A stretch of 64,000 nt of DNA from an uncultured Rhodospirillaceae bacterium. GTDB taxonomy: Bacteria; Pseudomonadota; Alphaproteobacteria; Rhodospirillales; UBA2165. The position numbers were made by a program, and so were the translations under genes. Below are positions 3,413 through 28,296 of this stretch, in pieces. Each line of letters begins with the position of its first letter. The stretch's first letter is position 1. The stretch spans positions 13,226 to 77,225 of the forward strand of contig CAJWAR010000013.1 of assembly GCA_913020445.1 (NCBI GenBank), given 5' to 3'. Below the pieces are notes generated by a model. It ran no database searches and had not been told where the DNA came from. It saw only the letters and a program-made list of their open reading frames with translations.

Positions 3413-3417
3413 GTGAC

Positions 3418-3888: not shown

Positions 3889-3895
3889 GTAGGCG

Positions 3896-4657: not shown

Positions 4658-4663
4658 GATGAG

Positions 4664-4694
4664 GGCGCTTAATTTATTGAGCGCCGTTTTTTTT
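4664..4694 (+). terminator. Rho-independent terminator after infA
   Basis: GGCGCT-taatttattg-AGCGCC followed by T8. Confidence 0.8.
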
Positions 4695-4719
4695 CGTAAA
4701 CTGGCAAAGGGCTTCACCG

Positions 4720-5310
4720 ATGCTGGATAAATCCTCTCCGGAATTCATTTTAGCTTCAGCCTCGCCCCGGCGGGTGGATTTGTTGCGCCAGATAGGCATT
4801 GCGCCAGATCACATACTGCCGGCCGAAATCGATGAAACCTGCCTTAAAAATGAGCAGCCGCGCGAGCTGGTTGCCCGGTTGGCGGCGGCCAAGGCGGCCG
4901 CAATAGCTAAAGATCACCCGGATGCATTTATTTTGGCTGCCGATACCGTGGTCGCCTGCGGCCGGCGCGTCATGCCGAAAGCCGAAACCGTGGCTGATGC
5001 ACGCGCCTTCCTGAAACTGCTTTCCGGCCGCCGCCACCGGGTGATCGGTGGACTTTCAATTATTGCGCCGGATGGAGCATCGAGCGCGCGGGTGGTTGAA
5101 ACGGCAGTAACGTTTAAACGCTTATCTGAAGCTGAACTGGATTTCTATTTGGCCTCTGGTGAGTGGCAGGACAAAGCCGGCGCCTATGCCATTCAAGGTT
5201 TGGCGGCGCGCTTTGTGCGATCACTCAATGGTTCCTACAGCAACGTGGTGGGATTGCCGTTGTTTGAGACCAGCCAAATGCTCAGCGGACTTGGTTTTGA
5301 TTTTAAATAG
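4720..5310 (+). CDS. maf: Maf-like nucleoside triphosphate pyrophosphatase
   Basis: ILASASPRRVDLLRQIGI... and KAGAYAIQG motifs. Confidence 0.9.
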   Translation: MLDKSSPEFILASASPRRVDLLRQIGIAPDHILPAEIDETCLKNEQPRELVARLAAAKAAAIAKDHPDAFILAADTVVACGRRVMPKAETVADARAFLKLLSGRRHRVIGGLSIIAPDGASSARVVETAVTFKRLSEAELDFYLASGEWQDKAGAYAIQGLAARFVRSLNGSYSNVVGLPLFETSQMLSGLGFDFK

Positions 5311-5318
5311 AGCGGCGG

Positions 5319-13321: not shown

Positions 13322-16300
13322 ATGGCTGATGAAACACTCACTGGTGCAGGTGGTCGCGACAATTTGAATATTGGAGCAGACGGCGAAGATAATGCACCTG
13401 AATCTTTTCTTGTTGAGGCCAATTCGAGCGATGCGGTAACGCTGCCGGATGGTTTTAACTTTGGTGATGCAAAATTTGAGCCTTCCGGACCAGACCTCGT
13501 TCTGACATCGCCGGATGGCAAACAAGTTGTTATCCAGGACTACTACGAACAAGATCCTCCCCCCGATCTGCATACCCCCGTAGGCGGCGAATTGGCTGGC
13601 TCCACTGCCGTTCGTCTGGCCCAGACAAATGCTCCGACGCAAGGTCAATTTGCGCAGGCTGCCCCCTCAGCCGATGCCCAGCCTATTGGCCAGGTCGAAA
13701 GTGTTTCCGGCACGGTGACTGCCATCCGTGCCGATGGTACGCGTGTTGAACTGCAGGTTGGTGATCCGGTTTTCCAAGGTGATGTTATGGAATCGGGAGC
13801 CAATGGCGCCGTAGGTGTCGTGCTGGCTGATGAAACCACTTTCTCGATGGCTGAAAACGGCCGCATGGTACTGGACGAAATGGTCTACGATCCGGGTACC
13901 CAGGAAGGCAACATTTCGATGTCGGTTCTCAAAGGCGTGTTTACCTTTGTGTCCGGTCAGGTTGCCAAGGTTGACCCCGACGCCATGGTTCTTAAAACAC
14001 CGGTGGCGACGATCGGTATTCGTGGTACGCAGGTTGGTATTGATCTAAGTGGTGAAGATCCCAACGGTATGAAAGTCGTTTTGATGGAAGAATCAGACGG
14101 CTTTGTCGGCGAAGTTGTGATTGCCAATAACGCTGGCATTCAGATTCTGAACCTGCCGGATCAAGGCGCCAGCGTTGCTAGTTCTAACACTGCGCCTTCA
14201 GAACCGCGTGTTTATAATCGCGCAGAAATTTCCGAATCTTTCCGTAGCGCGTTGGAATCACTGCCGACCACAGTTGGCACTGGTAACAATTATGGTGCCG
14301 ATGATCAGGAAAAAGAAGAGGAAGAACAGGAAGAACAGGAAGAACAGGAAGAGGAAGAAGGCGGAGAAGAGCAGGCTGAAGGCGAAGAATCTGGAGAAGA
14401 TGAGTTAGCCGAAGGCGAAGAAGGTGAGGGCGAAGGCGAAGAAGATTTAGATGACTTTGAAACCGCTGCCGGCGAAGGAGAAGAAGAGATAACCGACGAA
14501 GAAGCCGCTGCTGCCGCTGCAGCTGCACAGGCTGCTGCCGAAGCCGCTGCTGCCGAAGCTGCCGCCGCCGAAGCTGCTGCCGAAGCTGCCGCCGCCGCCG
14601 AGGCTGCCGCCGAAGCCGCTGCTCAAGCTGCCGCCGATGCCGCTGCCCAAGCTGCCGCCGAAGCTGCCGCCAGGGCCGCCGCCGCCGCCGCTGCTGCCGA
14701 AGCAGCCCGGTTAAAGGCCATTCAGGATGCTATTGATGCGGAAAATGCCGTGGCGGATACAGCTACGGTCTCGATTGAAGCTGCTGCCGGTGATGAAGAT
14801 GGAGAAATTGCGCTCGCCATCAGCGCCGGTATATCCGGATCTTCAACTGATGAAGTTCAAAGCATCAATATCACTAATATTCCGGATGGTTCGACACTGA
14901 CCTATCAAGATGCAAGTGGTGCCGATCAAACAATCTCAATTAGCGACGGTAGGGCCACACTTTCGCCAGCTCAATTGAGCGGCTTATCGATTACCCCGCC
15001 CTTGGATGAAAGTGCTGACTTTGCGCTATCGGTAAGCGCAACAAGTGTTGATCCGGACTCCGGCGTAACTGCGACAAGTGGTTCGGTTGGATTGGGAGTT
15101 ACCGTTGATGCGACAGTTGAGCCACCGGTTGTTGCTACAAATATTTCCATCGGCGACGAAGATACGGCAATTCCGGTCGATATCTCAATCGCCAATGTTG
15201 AAGCAGATGGCACCGTCACCAGCGTCACAATCAGCGGCATTCCGGAAGGCTCCGTCCTGATGAGCGGCGGTGAAGCGCATTCCTTAACTGGTCCTGATGC
15301 GAACGGATTTTATACTGCTGAAATCAGGCCTGACCAAGTCGATGGCCTGACCATTACGCCGCCGCAAGATGATGCGCACGATTTCTCGCTAAGCATTACC
15401 GCAACAGCAACGGATATTGATCCTGATATTATTGCCGAACATGCAGCGCTGGAAGTGGCCGCGACTGATGCAAGGGACGCCGCCGATGCAGCAAGAACGG
15501 CTGCTACTGAAGCACAAACCGCTGCCGATGATGCAGCAACCGTTTCAGAAGATGCTGCCACTGCATTGCAAGAAGCGATCGATAATGATGCACCTCAAGA
15601 AGAAATTGACGACTTGCAAGCAGCGGCGGACGCTGCTGCCGAAACGGCTACTGATTTGCAAACCGCGGCCGATACTGCAGATGAGCAGGCGACGGCGCTG
15701 GAAACGGCTGCCGACGAAGCCGAATCAGATGCTGCTGCATTGGCGCCAGCTGCCGCGGCCGCTACTGTGGTCGCCGCCGCTGAAGCTGCTCAAGTTGCTG
15801 CCGATGAAGCTGCTCAGGCAGCAGAGACGGCCGCCAGCGAACTTACCGTTGCCATCCAAGACGCCACTGATGCCTCTATTGCGGCTTCAGATGCTGCCTT
15901 AGCTTCAGCTGCAGCCGACGTTGCCTTGGCTGAAGCAATAGAAAATGAGGCTGACGAAGAAGAAATTGCCGAATTGCAATTGGCCGCTGATGCTGCAGCT
16001 GAGGCGGCTTTGGAAGCAGCCGCTACTGCCCAGGCGGCGGCCGATGCGGTTATTGATGCTCAAGCCAACAGTGAAAGCACCGCAACAGCTGCGACCAATG
16101 CGCAAGCTGTGGCCGATCTGGCCGCTGCCGATGCGGTCATCGCTGTCATCGAAGCCGATGAAGCGGAAGTTGACGGTTTGGTTACCAACACCAGTAAACC
16201 GATGGCGTTGGCTGTAACGGTCGATGCCACTGTTGATGCACCGGTTGTTACTCCGACCGCGGCGTCAGGCGATGAAGATACGGCAATCGATATCGATTTC

Positions 16301-19300
16301 ACGGCAACTGTTGATACCGAAGGTATTGCCGATGGCGAGTTAACGTCGGTAGAAATTAGTGGCATTCCAGTGGGTTCCGTTTTAACTGCTGATGGTACGT
16401 CGATGACGATTACCAACGGCAGTGTAACCTTGAACCCGGATCAGCTGGCTAATGTTCAGATTACCCCGCCCGAAGATGATGCCAATGATTTCACTGTACA
16501 GGTGAGAGCCACTGCAACGGATATCGATCCCGATTTGCTTATCGCCTCCGAAGATGCCGATGCGGCGCTGGCAGCTGCTATCACCGCTGAAGCAGACGCA
16601 ACAACTGCAGCCACTGCCGCCGCAGATGCCGCGACTGCTGCTGCTGATGCTGCCACTGCCGCCGCTGACGCCGCCGCCGAAGCCGCGACGATTGCCGCCG
16701 ACGCCGCGACGGCGCTCCAAGAAGCGATCGATAATGATGCGCCGCAGGAAGAAATTGATGCCTTGCAAATAGCCGCTGATGACGCCGAGGCAACTGCTGC
16801 TGAATTGCAAACCACTGCTGAAACTGCGGCACAGGCGAGTACCGATGCGGCGGATGCCGAAACTGCTGCTAATCAGGCATTGACTGATGCTCAAACAACT
16901 CTCAGTGAGGCTACCACCGCCGCCGCCGATGCTGCCGACGCGGTTACCAACGGCTATATTACCAACACCAGTGATCCGGTCGATCTCGACGTGACAGTAA
17001 GTGCGGTTGCCGATGTGCCGGACGTCACGGTGACTGCCGCTACAGGCGATGAAGATGCGGCGATCCCGTTGGATATTTCGGCCACCGGCGATTTCCCGGA
17101 TGATACGCTCGAGAGTTTTACCATCAGCGATATTCCGGCAGGTTCCGTGCTGATGAGCGGCGATACAGAAATAACCTTGACTGGTCCGGATTCAGAGACT
17201 GGTTTTTACAGTGCTGTGCTGTCGCCTGATCAAGTAACGGGTCTGACTATTACGCCACCTGCCGATGATGCCAATGATTTTGCCCTGCAGGTGAGTGCGA
17301 CGACATCTGACACTGATCCCGATACCAAAGATCAGGTTTTTGCCACCAGTGCACCAATTGCGTTAGCCGTTAGTGTTGCGGCCACGGTTGATGCGCCGGA
17401 TGTAGGTGTGACAGCGGCTGTCGGTGATGAAGATACCGCCATTGATATTGATTTCACGGCCTCCGTCGAAGCAACGGATGGTGACTTGCTGTCGGTTGCA
17501 ATCAGCGACATTCCAGTTGGCTCCGTTGTGACCGTTGATGGTACAGAGATGACGATTACAAACGGCACGGTTACCTTGACTCCAGATCAATTGGCGAATG
17601 TGCAAGTTACACCACCGCTAGATGACGCGGATGAATTTACATTGCAAGTTAGTGCGACGGCGACAGATACCGATCCCGATACCAGGATTGTGGTAACCAA
17701 CACCAGTGATCCGATTAATCTTGACGTCACGGTGAATGCCACGGGCGATGTTTCCGTTGATGTAAGAGATAATATAATTGACGAGGATTCGGGGCCGATG
17801 GTGCTGGATCTGACGGCGACAATCTCCGATATGGATGGTTCCGAGACACTTGCAGAAGTTGTCATTACTTTTGATGAAGTGCCGGAAGGTTTGGTCGTTA
17901 CTGGTGGCACCTTGGTCGGTAACGTTTTGACCATCCCAGCTGCCAATGTTGATTCGGTAACAATCGAAACACCTGAAAATTGGTATGGTGTTCTGGTCGG
18001 CTCAGCAATTGCCTACTCAAATGAAGGTGAAAGCTTATCCGACGGATTTACGATCACCATCAATGCGGTTGATGATGCACCAGAGGTAACGATCAATACC
18101 GGCGCGTCTATTGGCGAAGGCGAATTGGCAACAGTAACAGCCCAGATGCTGGATACCACCGATGTCGACACTTCTGATGACAATTTGACCTATACGGTAA
18201 GCGACAGTGGCACCGGCACGGTGCTGGTCGATGGCGTTGTGGCCACGACTTTCACCCAAGCTCAGTTGAATGCCGGCCTGGTGTCATATCAACATGATGG
18301 CACGGAAAATGAAGCAACCTCCTTCACCTTCACCGTAACCGATGGCACGACGATAGTTGGCCCGGAAACCTTCAACTTTGTCGTCAGCGACGGCAATATC
18401 GCACCGGTCGCTACCGACGATGTCGACACGGTTGGTGACGATATTGGTGATATTACCTCCGGCGACGTGTTGACCAACGATTTTGATCTTGATGGTGATG
18501 TCTTGAGCGTCACCCAGGTCGAATTTGAAGGCACGGTCTATACCTTCCCGGAAGGCGAAACCTCGCTCACCATCGAAGGAGATATCGGTACGCTGACCAT
18601 GAATAGCGACGGTACCTATGATTTCGTCAATAACGAAGGCATTAATGAAGGCACTGGTGAATTTGAATGGGCTGAAGGAACGCCGGATTGGGTTGATCCC
18701 TCAGAACAGCAGGAGCTTGATCCTGTTCAAGTCAACCAGGAAAATCTGACCATGCCGGAAGGTGGCGAATCCGTCACTGTGACTTTCCAAGGTGAAGCGG
18801 CCGGTTACCACAATGTGGTTGGTTTCTACAAAATTGATGCCGACGGCAATCCCTATGAACCACAGATTGCCTGGGACGACGCGTCACAGCAGGGCAGCGG
18901 CGGCGACTTAATTCCAGGCGAGTCTCAATTTACCATTGATGATTTGGGACCCGGCGAAAGTTTTGGTTTCTTTATCATTAAAAATGGCGCTAACGAATAC
19001 CCGTGGATCGACGACGTTCCCGATAACCATTACTTCGAGTTTAGTGCCGACGGTGAGTTGATCGAATACAACGAGGCAGGAAATCCGGTTGGTCAATCCG
19101 AAGGCGATGGCGACGATGATGACAACGAAGGCCATAATATCGACGTCGACGATATCTTTCATGCCGTTGACAACAATCTGACTGACAGTCTTTTAAATAC
19201 CGATAACATCACTCATACCAATTCCGGTATTGATCCCGAAACTGGTGATTTGATGATCGGTTTCGAAGACCTCTATGGCGGTGGCGACGAAGATTATAAC

Positions 19301-22300
19301 GATCTGATGTTCTCCGTTGAATATGAAGGAACACCGATCCCTGCTGAGGATGTCTTTACCTACACGGTGAGCGATGGCGAATTCACCGATACGGCTAATC
19401 TGACGCTTACGGTTGAACATGACAATGACGCGCCGGTCGCAATTAACGATTCCGGTTCGACCGATGAAGATTCCTCGGTGATTGTGGATGTCTTGGCGAA
19501 TGACACGGATGCCGATGACAATGACGTGCTGACGGTGACGGATGTCAGCCTGCCGGCTGGCGTTGACGGCACCGTGGAAATCGTTGAAATCGACGGTGTC
19601 ACGCAAGTGAAATTTACGCCAGGTGACAGTTTCGATGCTCTAAATACAGGTGACACGGATCAGGTTGAAATCACTTACACTGTTTCTGATAGCGAAGGCT
19701 TAACCGATACAGCTGTTGCGACGGTTACAATCACCGGCACCAATGATGGCCCGGTAGCAGAAGCAGTTATCGGCAGTGCCGGCGAAGATGATTTGTCTAT
19801 GACGGTCGATATTGCCGATCAGATCAGCGATCTCGATCACACTGACGCTGAATTGGCCATTTCAATCAATTTTGATGACGATGATGATAGCGATGTTGAT
19901 GTCGATTGGGATGTTAGCATCGTCGGTACAGAAGTTACTTTTACCCCGCCGGAAGACGCGTTTCAGTATTTAAATGAGGGCGAAACGGCGACCGATACCT
20001 TCACCTATACGGTTACTGATCCGGAAGGTGCTTCGGCCACCAATACCGTGACTTTGACAATTACCGGCTCTAATGACGTGCCGACAATTACCGGTGATAC
20101 CACTGGCGCAGCGACGGAAGATAGCGTTCTGACCGTGGATGGCCAGCTAAACATCGTTGATCCGGATACCGGTCAATCTCAGTTTGATGCGGTGTCTGAT
20201 GAAGTCGGGTCTTACGGTTCATTCTCAATGGATGCCAATGGCAACTGGACCTACGATTTAGATAATAACGCAGATATAGTTCAATCTTTGCCGGCTGGCG
20301 AGATCGTGACCGAGACTTTCACCGTGACCTCTGTCGATGGCACGGCTTCGGAAACAGTCACAGTGACCATTACCGGCACCAATGATGTGCCGAACATTAC
20401 CGGCGATTCCACTGGCGCAGTGACGGAAGACAGCGTTCTGTCAGTAGTTGGCCAGCTGAATATCATTGATCAAGATACTGGTGAATCTCAGTTTGATGCG
20501 GTTTCCGGTGAGGTCGGTTCATACGGATCATTCTCGATGGATGCGGCTGGCAATTGGACCTACGATTTAGACAATAATGCCGATGCGGTACAAGCTTTGC
20601 CGGCTGGCGAAGTCGTGACCGAGACATTCACCGTAACCTCTGTCGATGGCACTGCTTCGGAAACCGTTACCGTGACAATTACCGGCACCAATGACGTGCC
20701 GGTAATTACCGGTGATTCCACCGGCGCAGTGACGGAAGATAGCGTTCTGACCGTCGATGGCCAGCTGAATATTGTTGATCCGGATACCGGTGAATCTCTG
20801 TTTGATGCGGTTTCCGGTGATGCCGGTACATACGGTTCTTTCTCGATGGATGCGGCTGGCAATTGGACCTACGATTTAGACAATGATGCTGAAGCTGTCC
20901 AGGCTTTGGGTGTTGGCGACAGTGTAACCGAGACTTTTTGGGTGACCTCGGTTGATGGTACGGCGACGGAAGCTGTTTCAATTACCATCAATGGCACCAA
21001 TGACGCGCCAGAAGTATCGGGTGTTTTGGTGTACACCATGAATGAAGATGGTTCCTTGACCATCACCGAAGATCAATTGCTGTCCAATGCCAGCGATGTT
21101 GAAGGTGATAGTCTGAGCATCTCTAATCTGCAGACCGCTGCAGAAAATGGCACTATCACGGATAATGGCGATGGCACGTGGACTTATAATCCACCTGCGG
21201 ATTTCAATGGTCCGATCGCGTTTTCTTATGATATCAGTGATGGCACGGATACTGTGACTGCCGGAGCAATTGTTGATATTCATGCCGTTAATGATGCGCC
21301 GGATGCGGTTGACGATGTATTGGCGAGTGTTGCCGAAGATACATCCTTTACCTTCACGGCAGATGATTTACTCGGCAATGACACCGATGTTGATGGTGAT
21401 ACGCTCAGTATTATGGATATTGGTCAGCCTGATCATGGTTCCATTACCGACGATGGCAACGGCAATTACACTTATACACCGGAAGACAACTATAATGGCC
21501 CGGTCAGCTTTACCTATACTGCAACCGATGGCACCAGTGGTCATTCCTTTGTCAGCAATGACAGCCTCGCGACGGCCCAGGATATTGGCCGCGATAGTTT
21601 CGGCGTTGGTGAAGATGCGCTGGTTGATGATGACAGTCTGCCGCGTGTTCGGATTGAAGGGGCCGTTGACGAACCTGGCGATGTCGATTATTTCTCGTTT
21701 ACGCTACAGGACGGAGAGCAACTGCACCTCAATATAGATTCGGAAAATCAAAGTGACTCCGTTGACGCCTTAATCTTAATCTATGATGAAGCAGGCAATA
21801 TCGTCGCCTCCGTGGACGACTCTTTCGGCTCGATGGATCCATTTGGTACCTTTACGCCAACCGAAGGCGGCACCTATACGGTCGCCGTTCAGGCTTTCCC
21901 TTGGCAAAATGTTGAAGGTGCCACGGAAGAACAACTTGCTCTGGCCAGCGGCGATTATGTGCTAAATGCCAGTGTTGTGCCAACCGAGGACTCCACCGGT
22001 TTCGGTGACGCGCCGGCGACGATTTCCGATGTTGATACGGCAACTGATTCTGCATCTGTTACGTTTGATGTGGACTCAGTTAATGATGGCCCGGAAGCCG
22101 AAGCAGTTGTCGGCAGCGCTGGCGAAGATGATTTGTCTGTAACAGTGAATGTCGCTGATGAAGTAAGCGATGTTGACCATACTGATTCAGAACTTGTTAT
22201 CGCGGCAAATATGGGATCGACCGGCTGGACTGCAAACGTTGATGGCATGGATATCACGTTCACACCTCCAGAAGGCGCGTATAATCATTTAGCAGACGGC

Positions 22301-25300
22301 GAAACGGCCGTAGAAACATTTACCTATACGGTTACTGATCCCGACGGTCTGGAATCAACCAATACAGTTGTTATGACCATCAATGGCGCCAATGACGGCT
22401 TCACAGTTGACGGTAGCGTTGCGGCTGGCACCTTGGAAGATGATGGCGTTGCCTTCAATATTTTTGATGCCATTACGATCACCGATCCTGATGCTACTGA
22501 CACCCACTCAATTAACGGCTACACGCAACCGCAAAATGGTACGGTAACAGTCTCTGCTTTGGGTGCAGTTGTGTTCTCCCCAAATATCGATCCAACAACC
22601 GGCGAATCCGTTTTTAATACGATGGGTGTTGGTGATACGGCGACCGAAACCTTCACCTACACAGTGGATGACGGCAGTGGTGGAACGTCGATTGAAACCG
22701 CAACGATCACCATCACCGGCACCAACGATGCGCCGGTCGTAACAACAGCAATTCAAGACGGCACCACCAGTGAAGATCAAGCCTACAGTTATGATGCTTC
22801 GGCTAATTTCGCCGATGTTGATAATGGCGACTCGTTGATTTATTCCGCGACATTGGATGATGGTTCTGCGCTGCCGGATTGGATTTCAATTGATCCTGTA
22901 ACCGGTGAAATTTCCGGCGTGCCGGATAATGATGATGTTGGTTCGTTGAATATCAAAGTAGTTGCTACCGATGAGTCCGGTTGGGCGGCCGATGACACCT
23001 ATCAACTTGATGTCATCAACACCAATGACGGCCCAGTTGCGGTTAATGATATCGGCACCGTGGATGAAGATGCTTCAGTGACGCTGGATGTTCTGGCGAA
23101 TGACACCGATGTAGATGGTATCGCGCTGTCGGTAACAGATGTGAGCCTGCCGGAAGGCGTCGATGGCACGGTTGAAATCGTTGAAGTTGATGGTGTGACC
23201 CAGGTTAAATTTACCCCGGGTGAGACCTATAACAGCTTGGCGGTTAATGAATCCGAAGACGTTATCATTTCTTATACGATTTCCGACGGCGCTGGCGGTA
23301 GCGATTCAGCGATCGCTACTGTGACAGTTACCGGTTCCAATGATGGCTTTACTGTTATTGGCGATGCTGCCGACGATATGTTGGAAGACGAGCTGTCGAC
23401 GACGTTTAACGTTTTCGATGACATCACCGTAAGCGATGGTGATGCGTCCGATACTCACAGCATCACCACCTATTCTCAACCTGACAATGGTACGGTTGAA
23501 GTGCTGACTGACGGTACCGTGACGTATACGCCACCGGCCGGCCACTTTAATAGCCTGGCCGAAGGTGAAACGGCAATTGAGTCCTTCACCTATACGATCG
23601 TTGACGGTAATGGCGCTGAGTCCCTGGAGACCGCGACAGTTACCATCACCGGTACCAATGACGGCCCGGTTGCAATCGGTGGATCGGAATCCGACCTTTT
23701 AGAAGATATAGCATTCGCCGGTCAATTGGCGGCGACAGATGTTGATGGTGATACTTTGACCTTCTCCTTGGCCGATAATGGTGGCCCCGCCCATGGCTCC
23801 ATCACGATTGGTGAAGACGGCAGCTACTCTTACCAACCTGATCTGAATTACAGTGGCACCGACAGCTTTACTTTCGAGGTCAGCGATGGCCACGGTGGTA
23901 CAGATACCGCAACAGTTACGCTTTCTGTCACCGGTGTTGCCGATGATCCGATCGTTGTTGTCAGCAATGAAACTGGCAATGAGGATCAGTGGACCCAGCT
24001 AAATCTGGATGCGGATCTAACTGACACGGATGGTTCTGAAACTCTCAGCGTATTGATCTCAAACGTACCGGACGGTGCTTTGTTGAACCCGGGTACTAAT
24101 TTGGGTGGCGGCGAATGGACAGTTTCTCCGGAACAGCTGCATCTGGTTTGCATCCTGCCGCCGGAAAACTTTAACGGCGACATCAATCTAACCTTGGCGG
24201 CGACATCGACTGAAGCCGATGGCGACATTGCGACAGTTGAGCAAAACTTCACGGTAACAGTTGATCCGGTCAATGACGCGGCGACAATTACCGGTGATGA
24301 TACAGGTTCCGTCACCGAAGACAGTATTTTAGCAGTATCTGGTGATTTGGATGTAACCGATCCGGATACCGGCGAAAGCATCTTTGATGCCGCAAATGCA
24401 GTTGGCGATTACGGCTCCTTCACGATGGATGTGAACGGTAACTGGACCTATAACCTCGATAACGACAATGCCGATGTTCAGGCCTTGGGTGTTGGTGAAA
24501 GTATGTCTGAGACCTTTACGGTGTCGTCGGTTGACGGAACCGCGAGTGAAACGGTTACCGTTACGATCAATGGTACCAATGACGGCCCGGTTGCGGTTGA
24601 TGACAGCAATACTGTTGATGATACCGCCGATTCAGTTATTGGCTCGGTGACGGCCAATGACAGCGATGTCGATGGTGATACGTTGAATGTGACCGAAGTA
24701 GAGTTCAATGGCACGACCCATAGTTTCCCGGAAGGGGAAGACAGTCTTACCATCGTCGGTGATCACGGTACCTTGGTGATGAATTCCGATGGCAGCTATG
24801 AATATACCCGAAGCGGCGAAGGTGGTGGTACGGCCAGCGAAATTGTCGAAGCCGGCGGCTATGGTTCCAGTGAAGCTGACTGGACGAGTGCCGGGGTTTC
24901 CATTTCGGCCTTTGATTTCGGCACGTCCTATACCGATGGTAATGGCGACTTCGATGCCTCCTTGGCTGACGACAGTGTTGTCGTTACCAGTCAAGGTCTG
25001 GGCGTAGAAGGCACGCAAGGGGGTGCGCAAGCATCCACGCAAATCGAGTATGATCCGAATTCTGGTGATTCCGAAGCGCTAGCTCTGACCTTTGATACCA
25101 GTGTCTCAAGTGCGGATGTGACTGTTGCCCGCCTCTATCACGGCGAAGGCTCCGACGGTGAGCAGGGCATGTGGCAAGCCTATGATGCCGACGGTAATTT
25201 GGTCGGCAGCGGCGAAATTGATGATGAAACGGTTGCTTATGATGGCAGCAGCAATGTCGGCACCCTGAACATTGATCTTGGTGGCACGGCTTTCCAGACC

Positions 25301-26944
25301 GTGGTCTTCACGGCGACCCAAATGTCAGGCAGCCAAAGTGACTTTAAAGTCCAAGGCGTTGAATATGAAACAGTTGGAACCTTGGTCGGTGACGGCGGTG
25401 AAGACGTCTTCACTTATACGGTCGCCGATGATCAAGGAGCTACAGATACCGCTGCTTTGACCATCACCGTTGATGGTGATGATGATCCCGCTGATGCGCC
25501 TGTACTGACGATCTCGGCAACCTTGGTTGAAGCAATTCCAACCGAAACGCTATTTACCAGTACGTTTGATGACGGCGCTGCTGATGGCTTCTCCTATGTT
25601 GATGACGCTTTCCGCGACACCGATGAAGGCGATTACGCCAAAGGCCAGATTAAAGATGGTGGACATCACGATGACGATGGGCGCTTACGGGTCGAGCTTG
25701 GGGGTAAAGATGATGACGATATTACCGACATGTCTGGCGGGTTTGAGCAAAGCTTTACCGTTGATGAAGATGGTGCGGGCTCCATTACGTTCACTTATAA
25801 AATCGATATGGACAGCCATTATGAAGATGACGAATACGCCGAAGTATTGGTCAGCATTGATGGCGAACTTGTCAATATTGCCGGTAATGACTATGTCACG
25901 CGTGTCTCCGGTGGTGATGATATCGGTTGGACGACAGTAACCATCGACCTTGGAGATTTGGATGCCGGTGATCATACTGTTATGATTGGTGGCTATAACA
26001 ATAAGAAGACCTATCACAACGAGAAAACCAAAATCGATTTTGATGATGTTTCTTTGAATGTCGGATCAAGCGATCCGGGCAGCACCTTTGAAGTCGATAT
26101 TACCGCAGCATTGACGGATGATACAGAAACCTTGTCAGCGGTCACGATTGACGAGCTGCCGGAAGGTGTCGCGTTTGTCGGCATTGACCAAAATGACGAT
26201 GGCACATGGACGCTGACAGCGGATGATCTTGTTGATTTGACCATGACGGTGCCGCCGGGTACCGATGATTTTGATATTAGCGCGTCGGTTACCTCGACGG
26301 AAGACAATGGAAATTTTGCCACGACAACGACCTCTATCACTGTTGATGTCCCGGTAATTGATGCCGAGGACCATGATCGTATGGGCAGCTCATCTGACGA
26401 TACCATTGTCGGCATGGATCGCGACGACGATGCCGATGCTGATGCCGGAGGTGATGATATCCTCTACGGCGGCGCCGGTGATGATACCATCGACGGCCAA
26501 GGCGGCGATGATGTGATATTCGGCGGCTCCGGTGTTGACTATATTGATGGCGGTGATGGCGGCGACGTTATCTACGGCGGCAGCGACGACGATGTTATTA
26601 TCGGTGGTGAAGGCAACGACCAGCTTTATGGTGGCTCCGGCGATGATGAATTTATCTTCAGCCTCGGCGATGGCGAAGACACTGTCTTCGATTTTGATAA
26701 TGGCGACGTTCTGACCTTCGAAGGCATCGATCTCAATGACGGCGATGCTGTCGAGTTCGATACCGATGGCGATGATGTTGTTGTCACGGTTATCGGCAGC
26801 AACAATGAGCAGTCTAAAGTGACGTTGAAGGATGCTGCCAAAGACATGGATGATGATGAACGCCAAAATGTCGGAGATGGCTACTCTGTTACCGATACCG
26901 GTGACGGCTCCATCAATATCATTGTCGATACTCCCGGCGGCTAA
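13322..26944 (+). CDS. Giant (4540 aa) RTX-type, T1SS-secreted repetitive adhesin (LapA/BapA class)
   Basis: Single uninterrupted 13,623-nt ORF with GAGGGGG upstream of the ATG. Layout, N- to C-terminal: an N-terminal region with a FecR-like beta-rich segment (GQVESVSGTVTAIRADGT...TIGIRGTQVGI); a polyacidic linker with TAAG; poly-Ala/Glu; five 'GDEDTAI...ITPP.DD..DF.L.V.AT' domains; many VNDAP/TNDGP cadherin/VCBS-like units; a DUF4114-like segment (GFEDLYGGGDEDYNDLMFSVEY); a PPC-like segment (DVDYFSFTL...GTYTVAVQAF); a dystroglycan-type cadherin-like segment; and C-terminal GGxGxD nonapeptides with a T1SS-type tail. Confidence 0.93.
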   Translation: MADETLTGAGGRDNLNIGADGEDNAPESFLVEANSSDAVTLPDGFNFGDAKFEPSGPDLVLTSPDGKQVVIQDYYEQDPPPDLHTPVGGELAGSTAVRLAQTNAPTQGQFAQAAPSADAQPIGQVESVSGTVTAIRADGTRVELQVGDPVFQGDVMESGANGAVGVVLADETTFSMAENGRMVLDEMVYDPGTQEGNISMSVLKGVFTFVSGQVAKVDPDAMVLKTPVATIGIRGTQVGIDLSGEDPNGMKVVLMEESDGFVGEVVIANNAGIQILNLPDQGASVASSNTAPSEPRVYNRAEISESFRSALESLPTTVGTGNNYGADDQEKEEEEQEEQEEQEEEEGGEEQAEGEESGEDELAEGEEGEGEGEEDLDDFETAAGEGEEEITDEEAAAAAAAAQAAAEAAAAEAAAAEAAAEAAAAAEAAAEAAAQAAADAAAQAAAEAAARAAAAAAAAEAARLKAIQDAIDAENAVADTATVSIEAAAGDEDGEIALAISAGISGSSTDEVQSINITNIPDGSTLTYQDASGADQTISISDGRATLSPAQLSGLSITPPLDESADFALSVSATSVDPDSGVTATSGSVGLGVTVDATVEPPVVATNISIGDEDTAIPVDISIANVEADGTVTSVTISGIPEGSVLMSGGEAHSLTGPDANGFYTAEIRPDQVDGLTITPPQDDAHDFSLSITATATDIDPDIIAEHAALEVAATDARDAADAARTAATEAQTAADDAATVSEDAATALQEAIDNDAPQEEIDDLQAAADAAAETATDLQTAADTADEQATALETAADEAESDAAALAPAAAAATVVAAAEAAQVAADEAAQAAETAASELTVAIQDATDASIAASDAALASAAADVALAEAIENEADEEEIAELQLAADAAAEAALEAAATAQAAADAVIDAQANSESTATAATNAQAVADLAAADAVIAVIEADEAEVDGLVTNTSKPMALAVTVDATVDAPVVTPTAASGDEDTAIDIDFTATVDTEGIADGELTSVEISGIPVGSVLTADGTSMTITNGSVTLNPDQLANVQITPPEDDANDFTVQVRATATDIDPDLLIASEDADAALAAAITAEADATTAATAAADAATAAADAATAAADAAAEAATIAADAATALQEAIDNDAPQEEIDALQIAADDAEATAAELQTTAETAAQASTDAADAETAANQALTDAQTTLSEATTAAADAADAVTNGYITNTSDPVDLDVTVSAVADVPDVTVTAATGDEDAAIPLDISATGDFPDDTLESFTISDIPAGSVLMSGDTEITLTGPDSETGFYSAVLSPDQVTGLTITPPADDANDFALQVSATTSDTDPDTKDQVFATSAPIALAVSVAATVDAPDVGVTAAVGDEDTAIDIDFTASVEATDGDLLSVAISDIPVGSVVTVDGTEMTITNGTVTLTPDQLANVQVTPPLDDADEFTLQVSATATDTDPDTRIVVTNTSDPINLDVTVNATGDVSVDVRDNIIDEDSGPMVLDLTATISDMDGSETLAEVVITFDEVPEGLVVTGGTLVGNVLTIPAANVDSVTIETPENWYGVLVGSAIAYSNEGESLSDGFTITINAVDDAPEVTINTGASIGEGELATVTAQMLDTTDVDTSDDNLTYTVSDSGTGTVLVDGVVATTFTQAQLNAGLVSYQHDGTENEATSFTFTVTDGTTIVGPETFNFVVSDGNIAPVATDDVDTVGDDIGDITSGDVLTNDFDLDGDVLSVTQVEFEGTVYTFPEGETSLTIEGDIGTLTMNSDGTYDFVNNEGINEGTGEFEWAEGTPDWVDPSEQQELDPVQVNQENLTMPEGGESVTVTFQGEAAGYHNVVGFYKIDADGNPYEPQIAWDDASQQGSGGDLIPGESQFTIDDLGPGESFGFFIIKNGANEYPWIDDVPDNHYFEFSADGELIEYNEAGNPVGQSEGDGDDDDNEGHNIDVDDIFHAVDNNLTDSLLNTDNITHTNSGIDPETGDLMIGFEDLYGGGDEDYNDLMFSVEYEGTPIPAEDVFTYTVSDGEFTDTANLTLTVEHDNDAPVAINDSGSTDEDSSVIVDVLANDTDADDNDVLTVTDVSLPAGVDGTVEIVEIDGVTQVKFTPGDSFDALNTGDTDQVEITYTVSDSEGLTDTAVATVTITGTNDGPVAEAVIGSAGEDDLSMTVDIADQISDLDHTDAELAISINFDDDDDSDVDVDWDVSIVGTEVTFTPPEDAFQYLNEGETATDTFTYTVTDPEGASATNTVTLTITGSNDVPTITGDTTGAATEDSVLTVDGQLNIVDPDTGQSQFDAVSDEVGSYGSFSMDANGNWTYDLDNNADIVQSLPAGEIVTETFTVTSVDGTASETVTVTITGTNDVPNITGDSTGAVTEDSVLSVVGQLNIIDQDTGESQFDAVSGEVGSYGSFSMDAAGNWTYDLDNNADAVQALPAGEVVTETFTVTSVDGTASETVTVTITGTNDVPVITGDSTGAVTEDSVLTVDGQLNIVDPDTGESLFDAVSGDAGTYGSFSMDAAGNWTYDLDNDAEAVQALGVGDSVTETFWVTSVDGTATEAVSITINGTNDAPEVSGVLVYTMNEDGSLTITEDQLLSNASDVEGDSLSISNLQTAAENGTITDNGDGTWTYNPPADFNGPIAFSYDISDGTDTVTAGAIVDIHAVNDAPDAVDDVLASVAEDTSFTFTADDLLGNDTDVDGDTLSIMDIGQPDHGSITDDGNGNYTYTPEDNYNGPVSFTYTATDGTSGHSFVSNDSLATAQDIGRDSFGVGEDALVDDDSLPRVRIEGAVDEPGDVDYFSFTLQDGEQLHLNIDSENQSDSVDALILIYDEAGNIVASVDDSFGSMDPFGTFTPTEGGTYTVAVQAFPWQNVEGATEEQLALASGDYVLNASVVPTEDSTGFGDAPATISDVDTATDSASVTFDVDSVNDGPEAEAVVGSAGEDDLSVTVNVADEVSDVDHTDSELVIAANMGSTGWTANVDGMDITFTPPEGAYNHLADGETAVETFTYTVTDPDGLESTNTVVMTINGANDGFTVDGSVAAGTLEDDGVAFNIFDAITITDPDATDTHSINGYTQPQNGTVTVSALGAVVFSPNIDPTTGESVFNTMGVGDTATETFTYTVDDGSGGTSIETATITITGTNDAPVVTTAIQDGTTSEDQAYSYDASANFADVDNGDSLIYSATLDDGSALPDWISIDPVTGEISGVPDNDDVGSLNIKVVATDESGWAADDTYQLDVINTNDGPVAVNDIGTVDEDASVTLDVLANDTDVDGIALSVTDVSLPEGVDGTVEIVEVDGVTQVKFTPGETYNSLAVNESEDVIISYTISDGAGGSDSAIATVTVTGSNDGFTVIGDAADDMLEDELSTTFNVFDDITVSDGDASDTHSITTYSQPDNGTVEVLTDGTVTYTPPAGHFNSLAEGETAIESFTYTIVDGNGAESLETATVTITGTNDGPVAIGGSESDLLEDIAFAGQLAATDVDGDTLTFSLADNGGPAHGSITIGEDGSYSYQPDLNYSGTDSFTFEVSDGHGGTDTATVTLSVTGVADDPIVVVSNETGNEDQWTQLNLDADLTDTDGSETLSVLISNVPDGALLNPGTNLGGGEWTVSPEQLHLVCILPPENFNGDINLTLAATSTEADGDIATVEQNFTVTVDPVNDAATITGDDTGSVTEDSILAVSGDLDVTDPDTGESIFDAANAVGDYGSFTMDVNGNWTYNLDNDNADVQALGVGESMSETFTVSSVDGTASETVTVTINGTNDGPVAVDDSNTVDDTADSVIGSVTANDSDVDGDTLNVTEVEFNGTTHSFPEGEDSLTIVGDHGTLVMNSDGSYEYTRSGEGGGTASEIVEAGGYGSSEADWTSAGVSISAFDFGTSYTDGNGDFDASLADDSVVVTSQGLGVEGTQGGAQASTQIEYDPNSGDSEALALTFDTSVSSADVTVARLYHGEGSDGEQGMWQAYDADGNLVGSGEIDDETVAYDGSSNVGTLNIDLGGTAFQTVVFTATQMSGSQSDFKVQGVEYETVGTLVGDGGEDVFTYTVADDQGATDTAALTITVDGDDDPADAPVLTISATLVEAIPTETLFTSTFDDGAADGFSYVDDAFRDTDEGDYAKGQIKDGGHHDDDGRLRVELGGKDDDDITDMSGGFEQSFTVDEDGAGSITFTYKIDMDSHYEDDEYAEVLVSIDGELVNIAGNDYVTRVSGGDDIGWTTVTIDLGDLDAGDHTVMIGGYNNKKTYHNEKTKIDFDDVSLNVGSSDPGSTFEVDITAALTDDTETLSAVTIDELPEGVAFVGIDQNDDGTWTLTADDLVDLTMTVPPGTDDFDISASVTSTEDNGNFATTTTSITVDVPVIDAEDHDRMGSSSDDTIVGMDRDDDADADAGGDDILYGGAGDDTIDGQGGDDVIFGGSGVDYIDGGDGGDVIYGGSDDDVIIGGEGNDQLYGGSGDDEFIFSLGDGEDTVFDFDNGDVLTFEGIDLNDGDAVEFDTDGDDVVVTVIGSNNEQSKVTLKDAAKDMDDDERQNVGDGYSVTDTGDGSINIIVDTPGG
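14300..14503 (+). repeat. Polyacidic low-complexity linker containing the TAAG motif (14462..14473)
   Basis: In aa 327-394, 41 of 68 residues are D/E by my count. The stretch includes (GAAGAACAG)x3. T381-A382-A383-G384 is encoded by ACC GCT GCC GGC. Confidence 0.9.
14504..14749 (+). repeat. Poly-Ala/Glu (AAAE-type) low-complexity tract of about 80 aa
   Basis: AAAAAAAAQAAAEAAAAEAAAAEAAAE...AAARAAAAAAAAEAARLKAIQDAIDAENA, encoded by GCN/GAA-rich DNA. Confidence 0.9.
15431..16175 (+). repeat. Ala/Asp/Glu/Thr-rich helical insertion 1 in the adhesin
   Basis: About 248 aa between '...ATATDIDPD' and 'VTNTSKPMALAVTV'. Contains ALQEAIDNDAPQEEIDDLQAAADAAAE and the variant LAEAIENEADEEEIAELQLAADAAAE. 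Confidence 0.8.
16535..16950 (+). repeat. Ala-rich helical insertion 2 in the adhesin
   Basis: About 138 aa between '...ATATDIDPD' and 'ITNTSDPVDLDVTV'. Repeats ALQEAIDNDAPQEEIDALQIAADDAE, and the DNA is near-identical to 15570..15620. Confidence 0.8.
20072..20998 (+). repeat. Three tandem 309-bp (103-aa) VCBS/cadherin-like units
   Basis: The NDVP anchors at 20072, 20381, 20690 and 20999 are exactly 309 bp apart. Units 1 and 2 differ at 13 of 103 residues by my count. A diverged fourth copy lies at about 24280-24590. Confidence 0.9.
26452..26655 (+). repeat. RTX Ca2+-binding nonapeptide repeats (GGxGxDxxx)
   Basis: LYGGAGDDTIDGQGGDDVIFGGSGVDYIDGGDGGDVIYGGSDDDVIIGGEGNDQLYGGSGDDEFIF. Confidence 0.92.
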
Positions 26945-26972: not shown

Positions 26973-27005
26973 AAAAAGGGCTGCCCATAGCGGGTGGCCC
27001 TTTTT
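26973..27005. terminator. Bidirectional hairpin terminator between convergent genes
   Basis: AAAAAGGGC-15 nt-GCCCTTTTT, with A-run and T-run flanks. The right arm overlaps the TAA of the minus-strand gene. Confidence 0.6.
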
Positions 27006-28296
27006 ACTTTTTGGCGCGTGAATCGATCATGTCACGGAAGGCGTTGGTCACCCGCTCCATATATGGCCTGAGGTAGTCGAAATTATCGGCATGATCAAAA
27101 GAATGACGCATGGCCGGATTCATTTCGAAGATCAGAATTTTGCCTTCCTCGGTCACATTAAAATCGATACCAAGGAAATCGAGGCCAACCAGATCGGGCA
27201 GTTTTTCCAGCCGTTGATAAATTTCATCGCCCAAGTAAGCACGCGGGTCAGCCATGAAGGATTTTTCTTCTTCGATCATCCAATCATGCTCGGCCATTAG
27301 CGTTTTGCGGTTGGAGCCATGCACGTTCCACGTCGCATCTATATGCAACACAACGGGATAGAGCTTTCCATCAATACTGAAAAACCGCATTTTGCGATGA
27401 TATTTCTGGTGGAAGAAATTCTCGATAAACTGAATCAGATAAAGCTCTGCGCCGGAAAGTTCCTCGGCGGCGGTGACAAATTCTTCCAAACTGTCACATT
27501 TGATAAAAGTGCGTCCGGTATGCGTACCGGTTTCGCGGATCAGCACGGGAAATTCGAACTTATGTTCTTCAAGCAATTTGGTGAGGTCGTATTTATTTGA
27601 ACTTTTTGCCGGCACCCGGATGGATTTACCCATCTCAATGCCATCGATATCGAGTAAACGTTGATAGTTGTTGTCCCGGGTCGATTCCATCACACGGGTT
27701 GGATCATTGATAACGGACAGCGTTGGATTATGTTCGAGAAATTGGGCGGCGGTCTGCAATGATAGGAGTTCAACATCCGGGTCCGCAATGGTGTTAATCA
27801 CAACATCGAATTTTGGGATACGGTTGGGGTGCAGCAGATTATTGTTCAGCACCAAATAACTGATGGTCGTGTAATCCGCCGCGTCCCAGAAATAGCGGCT
27901 CGAGAAATTACCGCCGCGCAGCTTCAGCTTATGCTGGCCTTTGCGGCTTTGGCCGAGCGTGTAGTAAGCGTTTTGCACGCCCCGCAGGCGGAGAATTCGG
28001 GCACGTGGTTCGGTAACGCAGGTCGAAACAGTTATCGGATTGCGCTTAACGCCGGCGCGGAGCGTGCGGCGCGCGTTCCTTTCATTGCCACGTGATTTTT
28101 GGATGGCGGACAAATTAAAATAAGATGGCAGATGCGTTGGATCCAGCTCAATGGCGCGTTCAAATATATTAGCAGCTCGATCTAAATCGCCGGAGCGAAT
28201 GAGCGTTGAGCCAAATTGACTGTAAAGAGTTGAGCTTTCAGGCGTGAGGGCGAGGGCGCGCTGGAACATCGCAACGGCTTCCGGAAACCGGTCCAA
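27004..28296 (-). CDS. TPR repeat + ATP-grasp domain protein (N-terminus unresolved)
   Basis: TPR repeats at the N-terminus. The C-terminal half is ATP-grasp-like (...VLIRETGTHTGR...LYLIQFI...GIDFNVTEEGKILIFEMNPAMRH). The TTG at 28296 falls in the middle of a TPR repeat. The frame stays open with TPR-like sequence up to the TGA at 28501..28503, with no ATG/GTG/TTG in between. Confidence 0.75.
   Translation of the reverse strand: MDRFPEAVAMFQRALALTPESSTLYSQFGSTLIRSGDLDRAANIFERAIELDPTHLPSYFNLSAIQKSRGNERNARRTLRAGVKRNPITVSTCVTEPRARILRLRGVQNAYYTLGQSRKGQHKLKLRGGNFSSRYFWDAADYTTISYLVLNNNLLHPNRIPKFDVVINTIADPDVELLSLQTAAQFLEHNPTLSVINDPTRVMESTRDNNYQRLLDIDGIEMGKSIRVPAKSSNKYDLTKLLEEHKFEFPVLIRETGTHTGRTFIKCDSLEEFVTAAEELSGAELYLIQFIENFFHQKYHRKMRFFSIDGKLYPVVLHIDATWNVHGSNRKTLMAEHDWMIEEEKSFMADPRAYLGDEIYQRLEKLPDLVGLDFLGIDFNVTEEGKILIFEMNPAMRHSFDHADNFDYLRPYMERVTNAFRDMIDSRAKK

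Follow-up and report, generated by a model that had tools for sequence, protein, structure and literature searches.

Release of adhesins by proteolysis is a known kind of biofilm switch. In Pseudomonas fluorescens Pf0-1, the LapA/LapG/LapD system relies on a periplasmic BTLCP that requires Ca2+ and cuts the adhesin at a di-alanine located after the retention module, which releases the adhesin from a TolC-like pore. Release of the Dvh type, in which a LapG-like protease is placed under an HD-GYP receptor and not under LapD, has been characterised in Desulfovibrio only (2024-2026), for DvhA, DvhG and DvhD of Desulfovibrio vulgaris Hildenborough (Karbelkar et al. 2024 PNAS, PMC10990149; Font et al. 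2026 Nat Commun, PMC13090378). The validated sites are LapA 107TAAG110 and DvhA 105PAAG108; DvhG and LapG both cleave [T/A/P]AAG downstream of the retention domain, at the bond joining the two alanines, and hydrophobic residues preceding the motif dock on the protease (PMC13090378, PMC10690286). DvhG-type proteases differ in their N-terminal regions: the D. vulgaris protease carries a TM helix together with a long disordered linker, and most others have a signal peptide (PMC13090378). Here, we describe a locus from a marine alphaproteobacterium of the Rhodospirillales type, contained in a 64-kb stretch of DNA (64,000 nucleotides, hereafter the window). The locus represents a variant of the Lap system that follows the Dvh type. 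We consider it probable, at roughly 75%, that a type-1-secreted RTX adhesin of such a Dvh-type (LapG-like) release system has its periplasmic release site in the interval 14300..14503. The adhesin gene and its relevant parts are as follows:

13322..26944, + strand: RTX adhesin of the LapA/DvhA type, 4540 aa (ORF list and translation)
13322..13681, + strand: N-terminal extension ahead of the retention module, residues 1-120 (tblastn, AF2)
13682..14221, + strand: retention module with a FecR-like fold, residues 121-300 (NCBIfam, Pfam, phmmer, Foldseek)
14300..14503, + strand: polyacidic spacer, residues 327-394 (composition and chance tests)
14441..14479, + strand: linear motif E-D-L-D-D-F-E-T-A-A-G-E-G, residues 374-386 (position-specific ortholog counts)
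14462..14473, + strand: T381-A-A-G384, with the predicted scissile bond between A382 and A383 (match to [T/A/P]AA[G/V])
14495..14758, + strand: Ala/Glu-rich helix of 88 residues, 392-479 (AF2)

Against the description of LapA-like adhesins by Smith et al. (bioRxiv 10.1101/198937), the protein is longer than 1000 aa and carries C-terminal RTX motifs (GGxGxD repeats at residues 4383-4442), it possesses a retention module, which starts at residue 121 and not at the N-terminus, and a canonical [T/A/P]AA[G/V] sequence follows this module at residues 381-384, where it is presumably exposed to the periplasm. Its repeats belong to the Pfam families Cadherin_4, Big_9 and Cadherin_5, with HemolysinCabind towards the C-terminus, and its composition is acidic throughout (D+E 20.6%, K+R 1.3%). 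The N-terminal extension contains a folded beta domain (residues 28-103, AF2 pLDDT >90) and finds matches of 32-86% identity in nearly all orthologous loci by tblastn; a Pfam search returned no family for it, and Foldseek matched it weakly to CyaA RTX block V (E 0.06, prob 0.97). The retention module is recognised by NCBIfam NF033682 (retention_LapA) on residues 123-187, with 38.7 bits, under the 50-bit cut-off, and by Pfam FecR PF04773 on residues 154-244. It matches the MpIBP anchor 5IX9 both by sequence (phmmer, E 2e-4) and, for the model, by fold (Foldseek, rmsd 0.8 A over 62 aa), and the model also matches PupR/FecR 6OVK and 4M0N (Foldseek, E about 1e-5). Taken with PF04773, the fold match of the model indicates that the FecR-like domain is real.

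Like the region I anchor of MpIBP from Marinomonas primoryensis, on which it superposes, the first retention sub-domain (residues ~121-185) lies ahead of the putative site, but it forms part of a larger FecR-like fold and has another domain in front of it, whereas in MpIBP the site (PAAG) follows at most ~40 residues after its domain. Residues ~123-285 resemble the C-terminal signalling domain of FecR/PupR (6OVK, 4M0N; 148-153 aligned columns); unlike in FecR/PupR, an anti-sigma or TonB-transducer partner is lacking here, where the domain forms the N-terminal plug of a secreted adhesin. The initial annotation had expected a larger retained plug from the distance of the site to the N-terminus, and this expectation is borne out: a plug bigger than that of LapA or MpIBP, composed of the conserved beta domain (28-103) and a full FecR-size retention module (123-285), is well supported. 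Both the plug and the cut site gain this support from the Dvh-type set that surrounds them, consisting of an RTX adhesin, an intact protease and a DvhD-like receptor. A cut site may thus lie almost 400 residues into an adhesin, behind a two-domain plug (381-384 here versus 105-108 in DvhA, and ~270 residues further from the N-terminus than in LapA), and substrate searches limited to residues ~70-150 would miss such adhesins.

The plug is followed by a spacer in which 41 of 68 residues are D or E (34 E, 7 D), exactly the span and composition quoted in the initial annotation. The best other 68-residue window of the adhesin contains 23 D/E, and 1000 shuffles reached 32 at most. The underlying DNA includes a 9-nt tandem repeat (4.4 copies, 96% matches, 14313-14352), and the stretch could be a flexible, slippage-prone spacer holding the motif out from the plug. 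Among orthologs, the distance from the FecR end to the motif ranges over 35-101 residues and the D/E fraction over 0.09-0.46. Recognition would need neither the sequence nor the length of the acidic spacer. Segment 353-387, which includes TAAG, has an AlphaFold2 pLDDT <50 and lies directly before a single continuous helix (392-479, pLDDT 87-96), which in the proposed model may be the stretch traversing the TolC-like duct; orthologs have A/E-rich or P/E-rich low-complexity stretches in the same place. In DvhA, by contrast, there is no polyacidic spacer between plug and motif, and the targeting helix packs on the retention domain.

The TAAG tetrapeptide, found at residues 381-384 (14462..14473) as previously placed, is not significant by itself in an Ala-rich adhesin, since [TAP]AA[GV] matches three times (at 381, 487 and 1364) and ~3.6 matches are expected from composition (an estimate). 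The matches at 487 and 1364 were ruled out as cut sites, since both map to the first strand of an extracellular domain of the repeated 'GDEDTAIxLDI' type. The significance of the remaining site comes from ortholog conservation: the motif, with the consensus [ED][DE]-L-x-[DEN]-F-[ED]-T-A-[A/S/G]-G, is present in 56 of 73 distinct orthologous N-termini, versus 0.47 expected from shuffles. Its hydrophobic anchors, L376 and F379 in the window adhesin, correspond to L at -5 (41 of the 56) and F at -2 (49 of the 56), while T, A and G are invariant and the second Ala position is A in 44, S in 6 and G in 6. The motif always comes after the FecR-like retention module, in linkers that vary in length and composition, and 17 orthologs carry two to three copies. 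The closest relative, L087, reads FETASGG and others read FETAGGG or FQTDAGG, so the di-alanine is not absolutely conserved. The orthologs provide a sharply delimited substrate motif suitable for searches, L-x-x-F-E-T-A-[A/S/G]-G, at times in several copies. As in DvhA, the hydrophobic anchors and [T/A/P]AAG come after an N-terminal retention domain of an RTX adhesin, although the spacing differs (-2 and -5 here versus F95 and F99 ahead of P105), and the tetrapeptide itself is identical to that of LapA. The 'DP' turn that precedes the motif in gammaproteobacterial substrates is absent from the adhesin, where E-D-L-D-D-F-E is found instead, and is also missing from DvhA (PMC10690286); the poly-Gly linker of the Lap system is absent as well.

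The genes downstream of the adhesin are as follows:

27004..28296, - strand: TPR protein with a remote ATP-grasp (RimK-like) domain (domain matches)
28501..30636, - strand: DvhD-type receptor, predicted to bind c-di-GMP, with TM, periplasmic dCache, TM, PAS and degenerate HD-GYP (Pfam, PDB, hydrophobicity)
30837..31643, + strand: BTLCP cysteine protease of the LapG/DvhG type, 268 aa (Pfam, NCBIfam, PDB matches)
30999..31040, + strand: polybasic tract RKRKRRSKKRRRGR, BTLCP residues 55-68 (12 of 14 basic)

The BTLCP starts with TTG at either 30837 or 30852 and is recognised by Pfam PF06035 (57 bits); its score for NCBIfam LapG NF045674, 98.5 bits, is far under the 320-bit equivalog cut-off, which makes it a homolog and not an equivalog of gammaproteobacterial LapG. 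It matches the LapG entries 4U65 (E 2e-22) and 4FGO (E 4e-20) in the PDB, and its triad C186, H221 and D236 is kept in both alignments and invariant in 66 homologs. The motif D185-C-E187-D (DCED), the counterpart of D316/E318 in DvhG, is also conserved, and calcium binding is predicted from it. Triad and D-x-E calcium motif are thus shared with DvhG. The N-terminus has one hydrophobic segment (residues ~8-30, mean Kyte-Doolittle up to 2.0), which may represent a cleavable signal peptide. The catalytic domain is basic, with 33 K/R versus 17 D/E.

The partner of this protease is, by its domain content, a receptor of the DvhD type and not LapD. It scores 43 bits for Pfam dCache_1, against a 45-bit cut-off, and also matches HD_5; in the PDB it matches nothing but 9RC0 and 9RBZ, both entered as 'HD domain/sensory box protein' (E 5e-18), and hydrophobicity puts TM segments near residues 31 and 350. 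A search of its sequence found neither the HD nor the GYP motif. Together this gives the DvhD architecture, a dCache between two TM segments followed by PAS and a degenerate HD-GYP, and, as in the Dvh system, the gene lies beside the protease gene, the two being divergent and 200 bp apart. A LapD with LapD_MoxY_N, HAMP and degenerate GGDEF-EAL was absent from the 64-kb window, which separates the locus from the Lap system. Control of the BTLCP by a c-di-GMP-binding receptor is predicted from the likeness to DvhD. The arrangement extends well beyond this window: of 80 genome loci, 66 have a DvhD-type receptor gene beside that of the BTLCP, no more than 1.5 kb away in 64 of these, and the order adhesin, DvhD, BTLCP is kept in every locus in which both ends are visible. 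The Dvh-type module is hence common in marine Alphaproteobacteria and is also found in some Gammaproteobacteria. In contrast to the Dvh system, the locus includes an extra TPR/ATP-grasp gene and no T1SS genes (ABC, MFP and OMF, or DvhB/C/E) were found in the 64-kb window, so the T1SS must be encoded elsewhere.

With a conserved motif, a disordered segment and a catalytically intact BTLCP in the locus, the candidate LapG site of the initial annotation holds up, and TAAG 381-384, a LapG-type scissile motif predicted from sequence, is very probably cut by the neighbouring protease. It is very unlikely that L-x-x-F-E-T-A-A-G instead serves a non-proteolytic role, such as a contact with the T1SS/TolC entrance or with a chaperone, and that its match to the LapG motif is coincidental. 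Such a role would fit the several motif copies per linker and the persistence in some orthologs of variants without a di-alanine (FQTDAGG, FNTEAGG, FETDAGG), and in a weak test, an AF2 monomer model in which the linker peptide was joined to the protease and an alignment was supplied for the protease part only, the motif stays undocked (pLDDT ~46-52). It fits poorly with the core T-A-[A/S/G]-G, which keeps small residues at the very positions required by a LapG-type protease, with the retention module that always precedes the motif, with the BTLCP encoded in 10 of 10 loci or species readable at both ends, and with the same layout in validated substrates (PMC13090378).

In the proposed model, the adhesin would be exported C-terminus first, the plug, consisting of the conserved beta domain and the FecR-size module, would remain in the periplasm and the long helix would fill the TolC-like duct. 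The order of parts, a disordered acidic spacer with L376-x-x-F379-E-T-A-A-G after the plug and then the 88-residue helix, and the neighbouring pair of an intact BTLCP and a dCache-PAS-degenerate-HD-GYP receptor of the DvhD type are the strongly supported elements of this model. At low c-di-GMP the receptor would free the protease, which would dock on the L and F anchors and make a Ca2+-dependent cut between A382 and A383, upon which the adhesin would leave the cell surface. The polybasic tract may be part of a lineage-specific N-terminal tether of the protease, outside the conserved mechanism, and might add electrostatic attraction to a very acidic substrate.

The polybasic tract RKRKRRSKKRRRGR is located between the hydrophobic segment and the catalytic domain, as noted before, within a linker of ~55 residues (35-88) that contains 17 K/R and 2 D/E; among 5000 shuffles of the protease, no more than 10 K/R fell within 14 residues, versus the 12 observed. 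Its codons are CGN and AAR, which rules out a frame-shifted copy of a GAA-rich acidic coding sequence. Of the 33 closest orthologs, 26 carry a tract with at least 8 K/R in 14 residues; among the 87 more distant ones, 2 do. The initial annotation had suggested that spacer and tract, being of opposite charge, recruit the protease by dedicated electrostatic docking or by a Ca2+-gated switch, a reading that we regard as unlikely. Both tracts are well beyond chance and, within the window's clade, both are conserved in composition and not in sequence; all the closest N-termini (FecR identity at least 80%: L087-L095 and P0001-P0003) have acidic spacers, and the sister clade L097/L167 has neither tract. 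However, equally acidic spacers also occur in distant clades (D/E fraction 0.42 in L138 and 0.38 in L120), where basic tracts do not; L148 and L155 have spacers with 27-31% D/E and no basic tract, and L182 retains a 12/14 basic tract without an adjacent adhesin. In L002, the strongly acidic spacer of ~115 residues contains two FETAAGG, while the protease begins at the catalytic domain and has 'AKKK' only. Moreover, as the adhesin is acidic over its whole length and the catalytic domain is basic, attraction between them requires no dedicated tracts.

The pairing of the two tracts could be followed in a small sample. A scan of metagenome contigs with the N-terminus alone gave 80 N-terminal loci, and 9 exact pairs and 1 species-level pair (L097/L167) could be built; pairs are so few because adhesins of the window's clade measure 4200-5600 aa and assemblies break in their repeats. 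Among the pairs built, the window is the only same-contig exact pair with both tracts, and there was no second one with a basic tract; for L001, which has a non-acidic spacer (CAMDWJ010000032.1), BTLCP and DvhD searches returned no BTLCP partner. In the nine further locus or species pairs the protease lacks the basic tract while the linkers range from non-acidic to strongly acidic, which speaks against the charge mirror as a general mechanism. Acidic linkers do go with tract-less proteases, as in L002, and the basic tract is confined to one sub-clade; the adhesin N-termini nearest to the window are all acidic. An electrostatic contribution specific to the polybasic sub-clade is possible, whereas the charge tracts are unnecessary for the basic mechanism. 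They do lend themselves to a straightforward test of whether low-complexity electrostatics tunes the encounter of a protease with its substrate.

The TPR/ATP-grasp gene, whose product has TPR matches only in the PDB, is an accessory of the same sub-clade, as judged from its co-occurrence with the polybasic protease. One may imagine that polyacidic spacer, polybasic tether and TPR/ATP-grasp protein form a charge-based control of release absent from the described Lap/Dvh systems, for example with the ligase altering the charge of some component, or with the basic tail capturing the acidic spacer in a manner dependent on Ca2+ or ionic strength. We hold this to be improbable; if true, adhesin release would answer to seawater ion conditions in addition to c-di-GMP.

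A different reading of the polybasic tract, put forward tentatively, is that it tethers the exported protease to anionic surfaces (inner-membrane phospholipids, LPS or peptidoglycan) near the receptor, and that it may replace the TM helix and 180-residue linker that anchor DvhG in D. vulgaris, in place of which the window BTLCP may have a signal peptide, with the polybasic linker. Membrane binding is hypothetical here, and the reading leaves the co-occurrence of the TPR/ATP-grasp gene with the tract unexplained. The net charge of the periplasmic dCache is the same in clades with and without the tract and is not more acidic in the basic-tract clade, which gives no sign of co-adaptation between tract and receptor and so counts against the tether. 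The persistence of the tract in L182 is in line with it, as is the N-terminal region of DvhG-type proteases, which differs among lineages (PMC13090378) and is variable and disordered here as in the Dvh system. Three N-terminal states were seen among the BTLCPs: no linker, a 45-residue Ala-rich linker and the 55-residue polybasic linker. An apparent FecR-BTLCP fusion of 449 aa on a 2.4-kb contig (P0094) looks like an assembly chimera.

Because a DvhD-like receptor and a LapG-like protease lie beside the adhesin, the locus is a Dvh-type variant of the Lap system and not a canonical LapD/LapG system. The features on which the analysis draws are listed here.

Features of the adhesin locus (window coordinates and strand)
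13322..26944, + strand: adhesin ORF, translating to 4540 residues
13322-13681, + strand: N-terminal extension of 120 residues, which precedes the retention module; conserved, with a beta domain at residues 28-103 predicted by AlphaFold2 (AF2)
14300..14503, + strand: acidic stretch, adhesin residues 327-394, with 41 D/E in 68 residues
14313-14352, + strand: 9-nt tandem repeat AAGAACAGG in the acidic spacer, 4.4 copies with 96% matches, coding for EEQEEQEEQ
14462..14473, + strand: TAAG, adhesin residues 381-384, a tetrapeptide match
14495-14758, + strand: Ala/Glu-rich helix of 88 residues (adhesin 392-479), single and continuous in the AF2 model, starting 8 residues past TAAG
27004-28296, - strand: TPR/ATP-grasp protein, 430 aa, with TPR repeats at its N-terminus and a remote RimK-like region (TIGR00768, E 2e-6)
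28501..30636, - strand: receptor, divergent from the protease, with TM, dCache, TM, PAS and HD-GYP-family domain in that order
30837..31643, + strand: BTLCP protease (Peptidase_C93), its only PDB relatives being the LapG structures 4U65 and 4FGO
30999..31040, + strand: basic tract RKRKRRSKKRRRGR, protease residues 55-68, with 12 of 14 residues basic

The HD-GYP-family domain of the receptor has neither the HD nor the GYP motif, and its sole PDB matches are 9RC0 and 9RBZ, titled 'HD domain/sensory box protein'. Going by this title, by how recent the two entries are and by the PAS/HD-GYP stretch that they cover, we infer that they are the structures of DvhD from Font et al. 2026. In Desulfovibrio vulgaris, DvhD is a dCache-PAS-inactive-HD-GYP c-di-GMP receptor that takes the place of LapD and controls the LapG-like protease DvhG, which cuts the adhesin DvhA at 105PAAG108 (Font et al. 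2026, PMC13090378; Karbelkar et al. 2024, PMC10990149). Alignments of the protease to 4U65 and 4FGO retain Cys186, His221 and Asp236 as well as the D-C-E-D calcium motif. The system probably works like DvhA/DvhG/DvhD: the locus has all sequence-level defining features of the Dvh system except co-located type I secretion (T1SS) genes. The LapD receptor of the canonical Lap system is not among its genes, and the protease scores below the NCBIfam LapG equivalog threshold. Neither LapD nor T1SS genes (ABC transporter, membrane-fusion protein, TolC-like) are found anywhere in the 64-kb window, so the exporter of the adhesin must be encoded elsewhere; the flanks hold fatty-acid/CoA metabolism, TRAP transporter and histidine-biosynthesis genes. 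A DvhD-like gene adjoins the BTLCP gene in 66/80 species-representative genome loci, Chromatiales and Desulfovibrio included, which shows that the module is widespread.

Taken by itself, the TAAG tetrapeptide is unremarkable, since [TAP]AA[GV] occurs 3 times in the whole adhesin, against an estimated ~3.6 expected from composition. The other two matches, each on the first strand of an extracellular repeat domain, were rejected as cut sites. With adhesin residues 1-326 as query, 684 relatives were found, chiefly from metagenome-assembled genomes of marine Rhodospirillales and Magnetovibrio, most of them ending early at assembly breaks in the low-complexity region, and metagenomes added 80 further N-terminal loci. 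Amid otherwise unalignable linkers, these relatives share a conserved island C-terminal to the FecR domain: Phi-x-T-A-[A/S/G]-G occurs no more than 200 residues past the domain end in 56 of 73 distinct sequences, compared with 0.47 expected from shuffles (maximum 3 over 500 shuffles). The profile is [ED][DE]-L-[ADN]-[DEN]-F-[ED]-T-A-A-G-[GE]-E, with L at -5 in 41 and F at -2 in 49 of the 56 carriers, T, A and G invariant in all of them, and A (44), S (6) or G (6) at the second Ala position; E-D-L-D-D-F-E-T-A-A-G-E of the window fits it perfectly. The initial annotation's proposal of residues 381-384 as a candidate LapG site is thereby well supported, and the motif is the conserved element of the spacer region. 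In models of DvhG with its substrate, hydrophobic residues before [T/A/P]AAG dock on the protease beta-sheet (PMC13090378); L376 and F379 would be their obvious counterparts, differently spaced. Two or three motif copies occur in 17 sequences, and 2-4 tandem copies per linker are found in the L068-type proteins P0068, P0062 and P0029 and at loci L092, L099 and L111, P0068 having four copies of L-x-E-F-E-T-A-A-G ~30-60 residues apart. The closest relative, L087 (FecR region 95% identical), reads FETASGG, and in a few orthologs FQTDAGG or FNTEAGG stands in place of the di-alanine motif. In one orthologous locus (L001; GCA_945877815.1, CAMDWJ010000032.1, 11090-11105), an in-frame stop 25 codons past FETAAGG interrupts the adhesin, leaving an N-terminal module of 363 aa and, in the same frame, a remainder of 3611 aa; sequencing error, pseudogene and readthrough are all conceivable. 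One predicted protein of 449 aa (P0094, on a 2427-bp ENA contig) runs from a FecR-type adhesin N-terminus, which contains FQTDAGG, straight into the latter half of a BTLCP domain; chimeric assembly or a large deletion is the probable cause.

Ahead of the site, the Pfam FecR match covers adhesin residues 154-244, the NCBIfam model of the LapA retention module hits residues 123-187 with a score under its cut-off, and residues 120-229 match 5IX9, the domain that anchors the Marinomonas ice-binding adhesin to the cell surface. The AlphaFold2 model of residues 1-480, built from an alignment of 38 sequences, has a mean pLDDT of 85.5 and shows the beta domain at 28-103 and a beta-rich domain at 123-285, both confident, then short helices, with pLDDT <50 across 353-387, the segment that contains TAAG. 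In Foldseek searches the 123-285 domain resembles FecR/PupR signalling domains, and the first sub-domain of the retention module superposes on 5IX9 with an rmsd of 0.8 Å. That the retained plug is larger than in LapA, as had been proposed, is supported by these two domains and by the conservation of the N-terminal extension in nearly all orthologous loci. The extension matches no Pfam family but has a weak Foldseek match to CyaA RTX block V, and its residues 5-25 resemble a degenerate RTX repeat (GAGGRDNLNIGADGEDN). Beyond the site, the 88-residue helix is coded by GCN-rich tandem repeats, has A/E-rich or P/E-rich stretches at its position in orthologs and, at ~1.5 Å per residue, would be ~130 Å long; it may be the segment that lies inside the TolC-like duct. 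The adhesin also has cadherin-like and Big_9 repeats, with RTX repeats at the C-terminus.

Both charge tracts are far above chance and lie exactly where they had been placed: the 41 D/E of the acidic stretch compare with 23 in the next-best 68-residue window of the adhesin and never more than 32 in shuffles (n=1000), and shuffles of the protease (n=5000) never exceed 10 K/R in 14, against 12 in the basic tract. At least 8 K/R in 14 are found in 26 of the 33 closest protease orthologs versus 2 of 87 more distant ones, in most of which the catalytic domain starts a few residues after the predicted signal peptide. Among the closest orthologs the tract always sits in a linker of ~55-65 residues that joins the catalytic domain to the hydrophobic N-terminus, and it keeps its composition but not its sequence; an origin as a frame-shifted acidic repeat was ruled out. 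Across the whole adhesin family the spacer varies in both length (35 to 101 residues from FecR end to motif) and acidity (D/E fraction 0.09 to 0.46), and the near-perfect 9-nt tandem repeats in its DNA suggest that it grows and shrinks by replication slippage.

The earlier idea that the two tracts mirror each other and dock can be followed in exact adhesin-protease pairs, available for the window and the orthologous loci L002, L148, L155, L008, L012, L109, L136 and L153. The tracts do occur together in the window pair, but not in L002, where a very acidic ~115-residue spacer with two motifs faces a protease without a basic tract, nor in L148 and L155, where spacers of 27-31% D/E do the same; the remaining five pairs have neither tract. 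In the sister clade L097/L167 (one species, 99% identical in nucleotides over their overlap), the spacer is non-acidic and the 45-residue protease linker is Ala-rich and not basic. The N-termini nearest to the window (FecR identity at least 80%) all have acidic spacers. From these comparisons, the acidic spacer does not depend on a basic tract. The window alone represents the basic-tract clade among the exact pairs, because the adhesins of this clade are 4200-5600 residues long and contigs break in the repeats; an electrostatic contribution restricted to the clade may exist. Since the adhesin is acidic as a whole and the catalytic domain of the protease is basic by itself, a general attraction needs no dedicated tract. 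A weak test with a fused AlphaFold2 chain (catalytic domain, spacer and motif) left the motif undocked at pLDDT ~46-52, and a comparison of the receptor's periplasmic domain across clades showed no difference in net charge.

The locus is distinct from the release systems already described in the position of its site (residue ~382), a two-domain plug followed by an acidic spacer before the motif, anchors placed at -2 and -5, relatives that often have multi-copy motifs, the polybasic protease linker and the clade-specific TPR/ATP-grasp gene. The text and consulted supplements of Font et al. 2026 (PMC13090378), a class-level figure aside, contain no mention of Alphaproteobacteria.

Directly upstream of the adhesin lies a divergent Sel1-repeat gene (7 repeats; 11928-12938, - strand), at whose position L186 and L001 have an unannotated gene of like size. 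The TPR/ATP-grasp protein lacks a signal peptide. Wherever a polybasic protease has an adhesin next to it (the window, L083/84, L177/178/181, L183-185 and a JGI 29-kb contig), an ortholog of this gene separates the adhesin from the receptor, and a tblastn search with the protein (E <1e-5) gave no hit in loci with a tract-free protease. L182 (Ga0369852_1020469, 2885-6029) retains the receptor together with a protease whose basic tract is 12-of-14. The two directly abut the CoA-transferase genes found beside the adhesin in the window, with no adhesin, Sel1 or TPR gene between them, which suggests loss or relocation of the adhesin block here.
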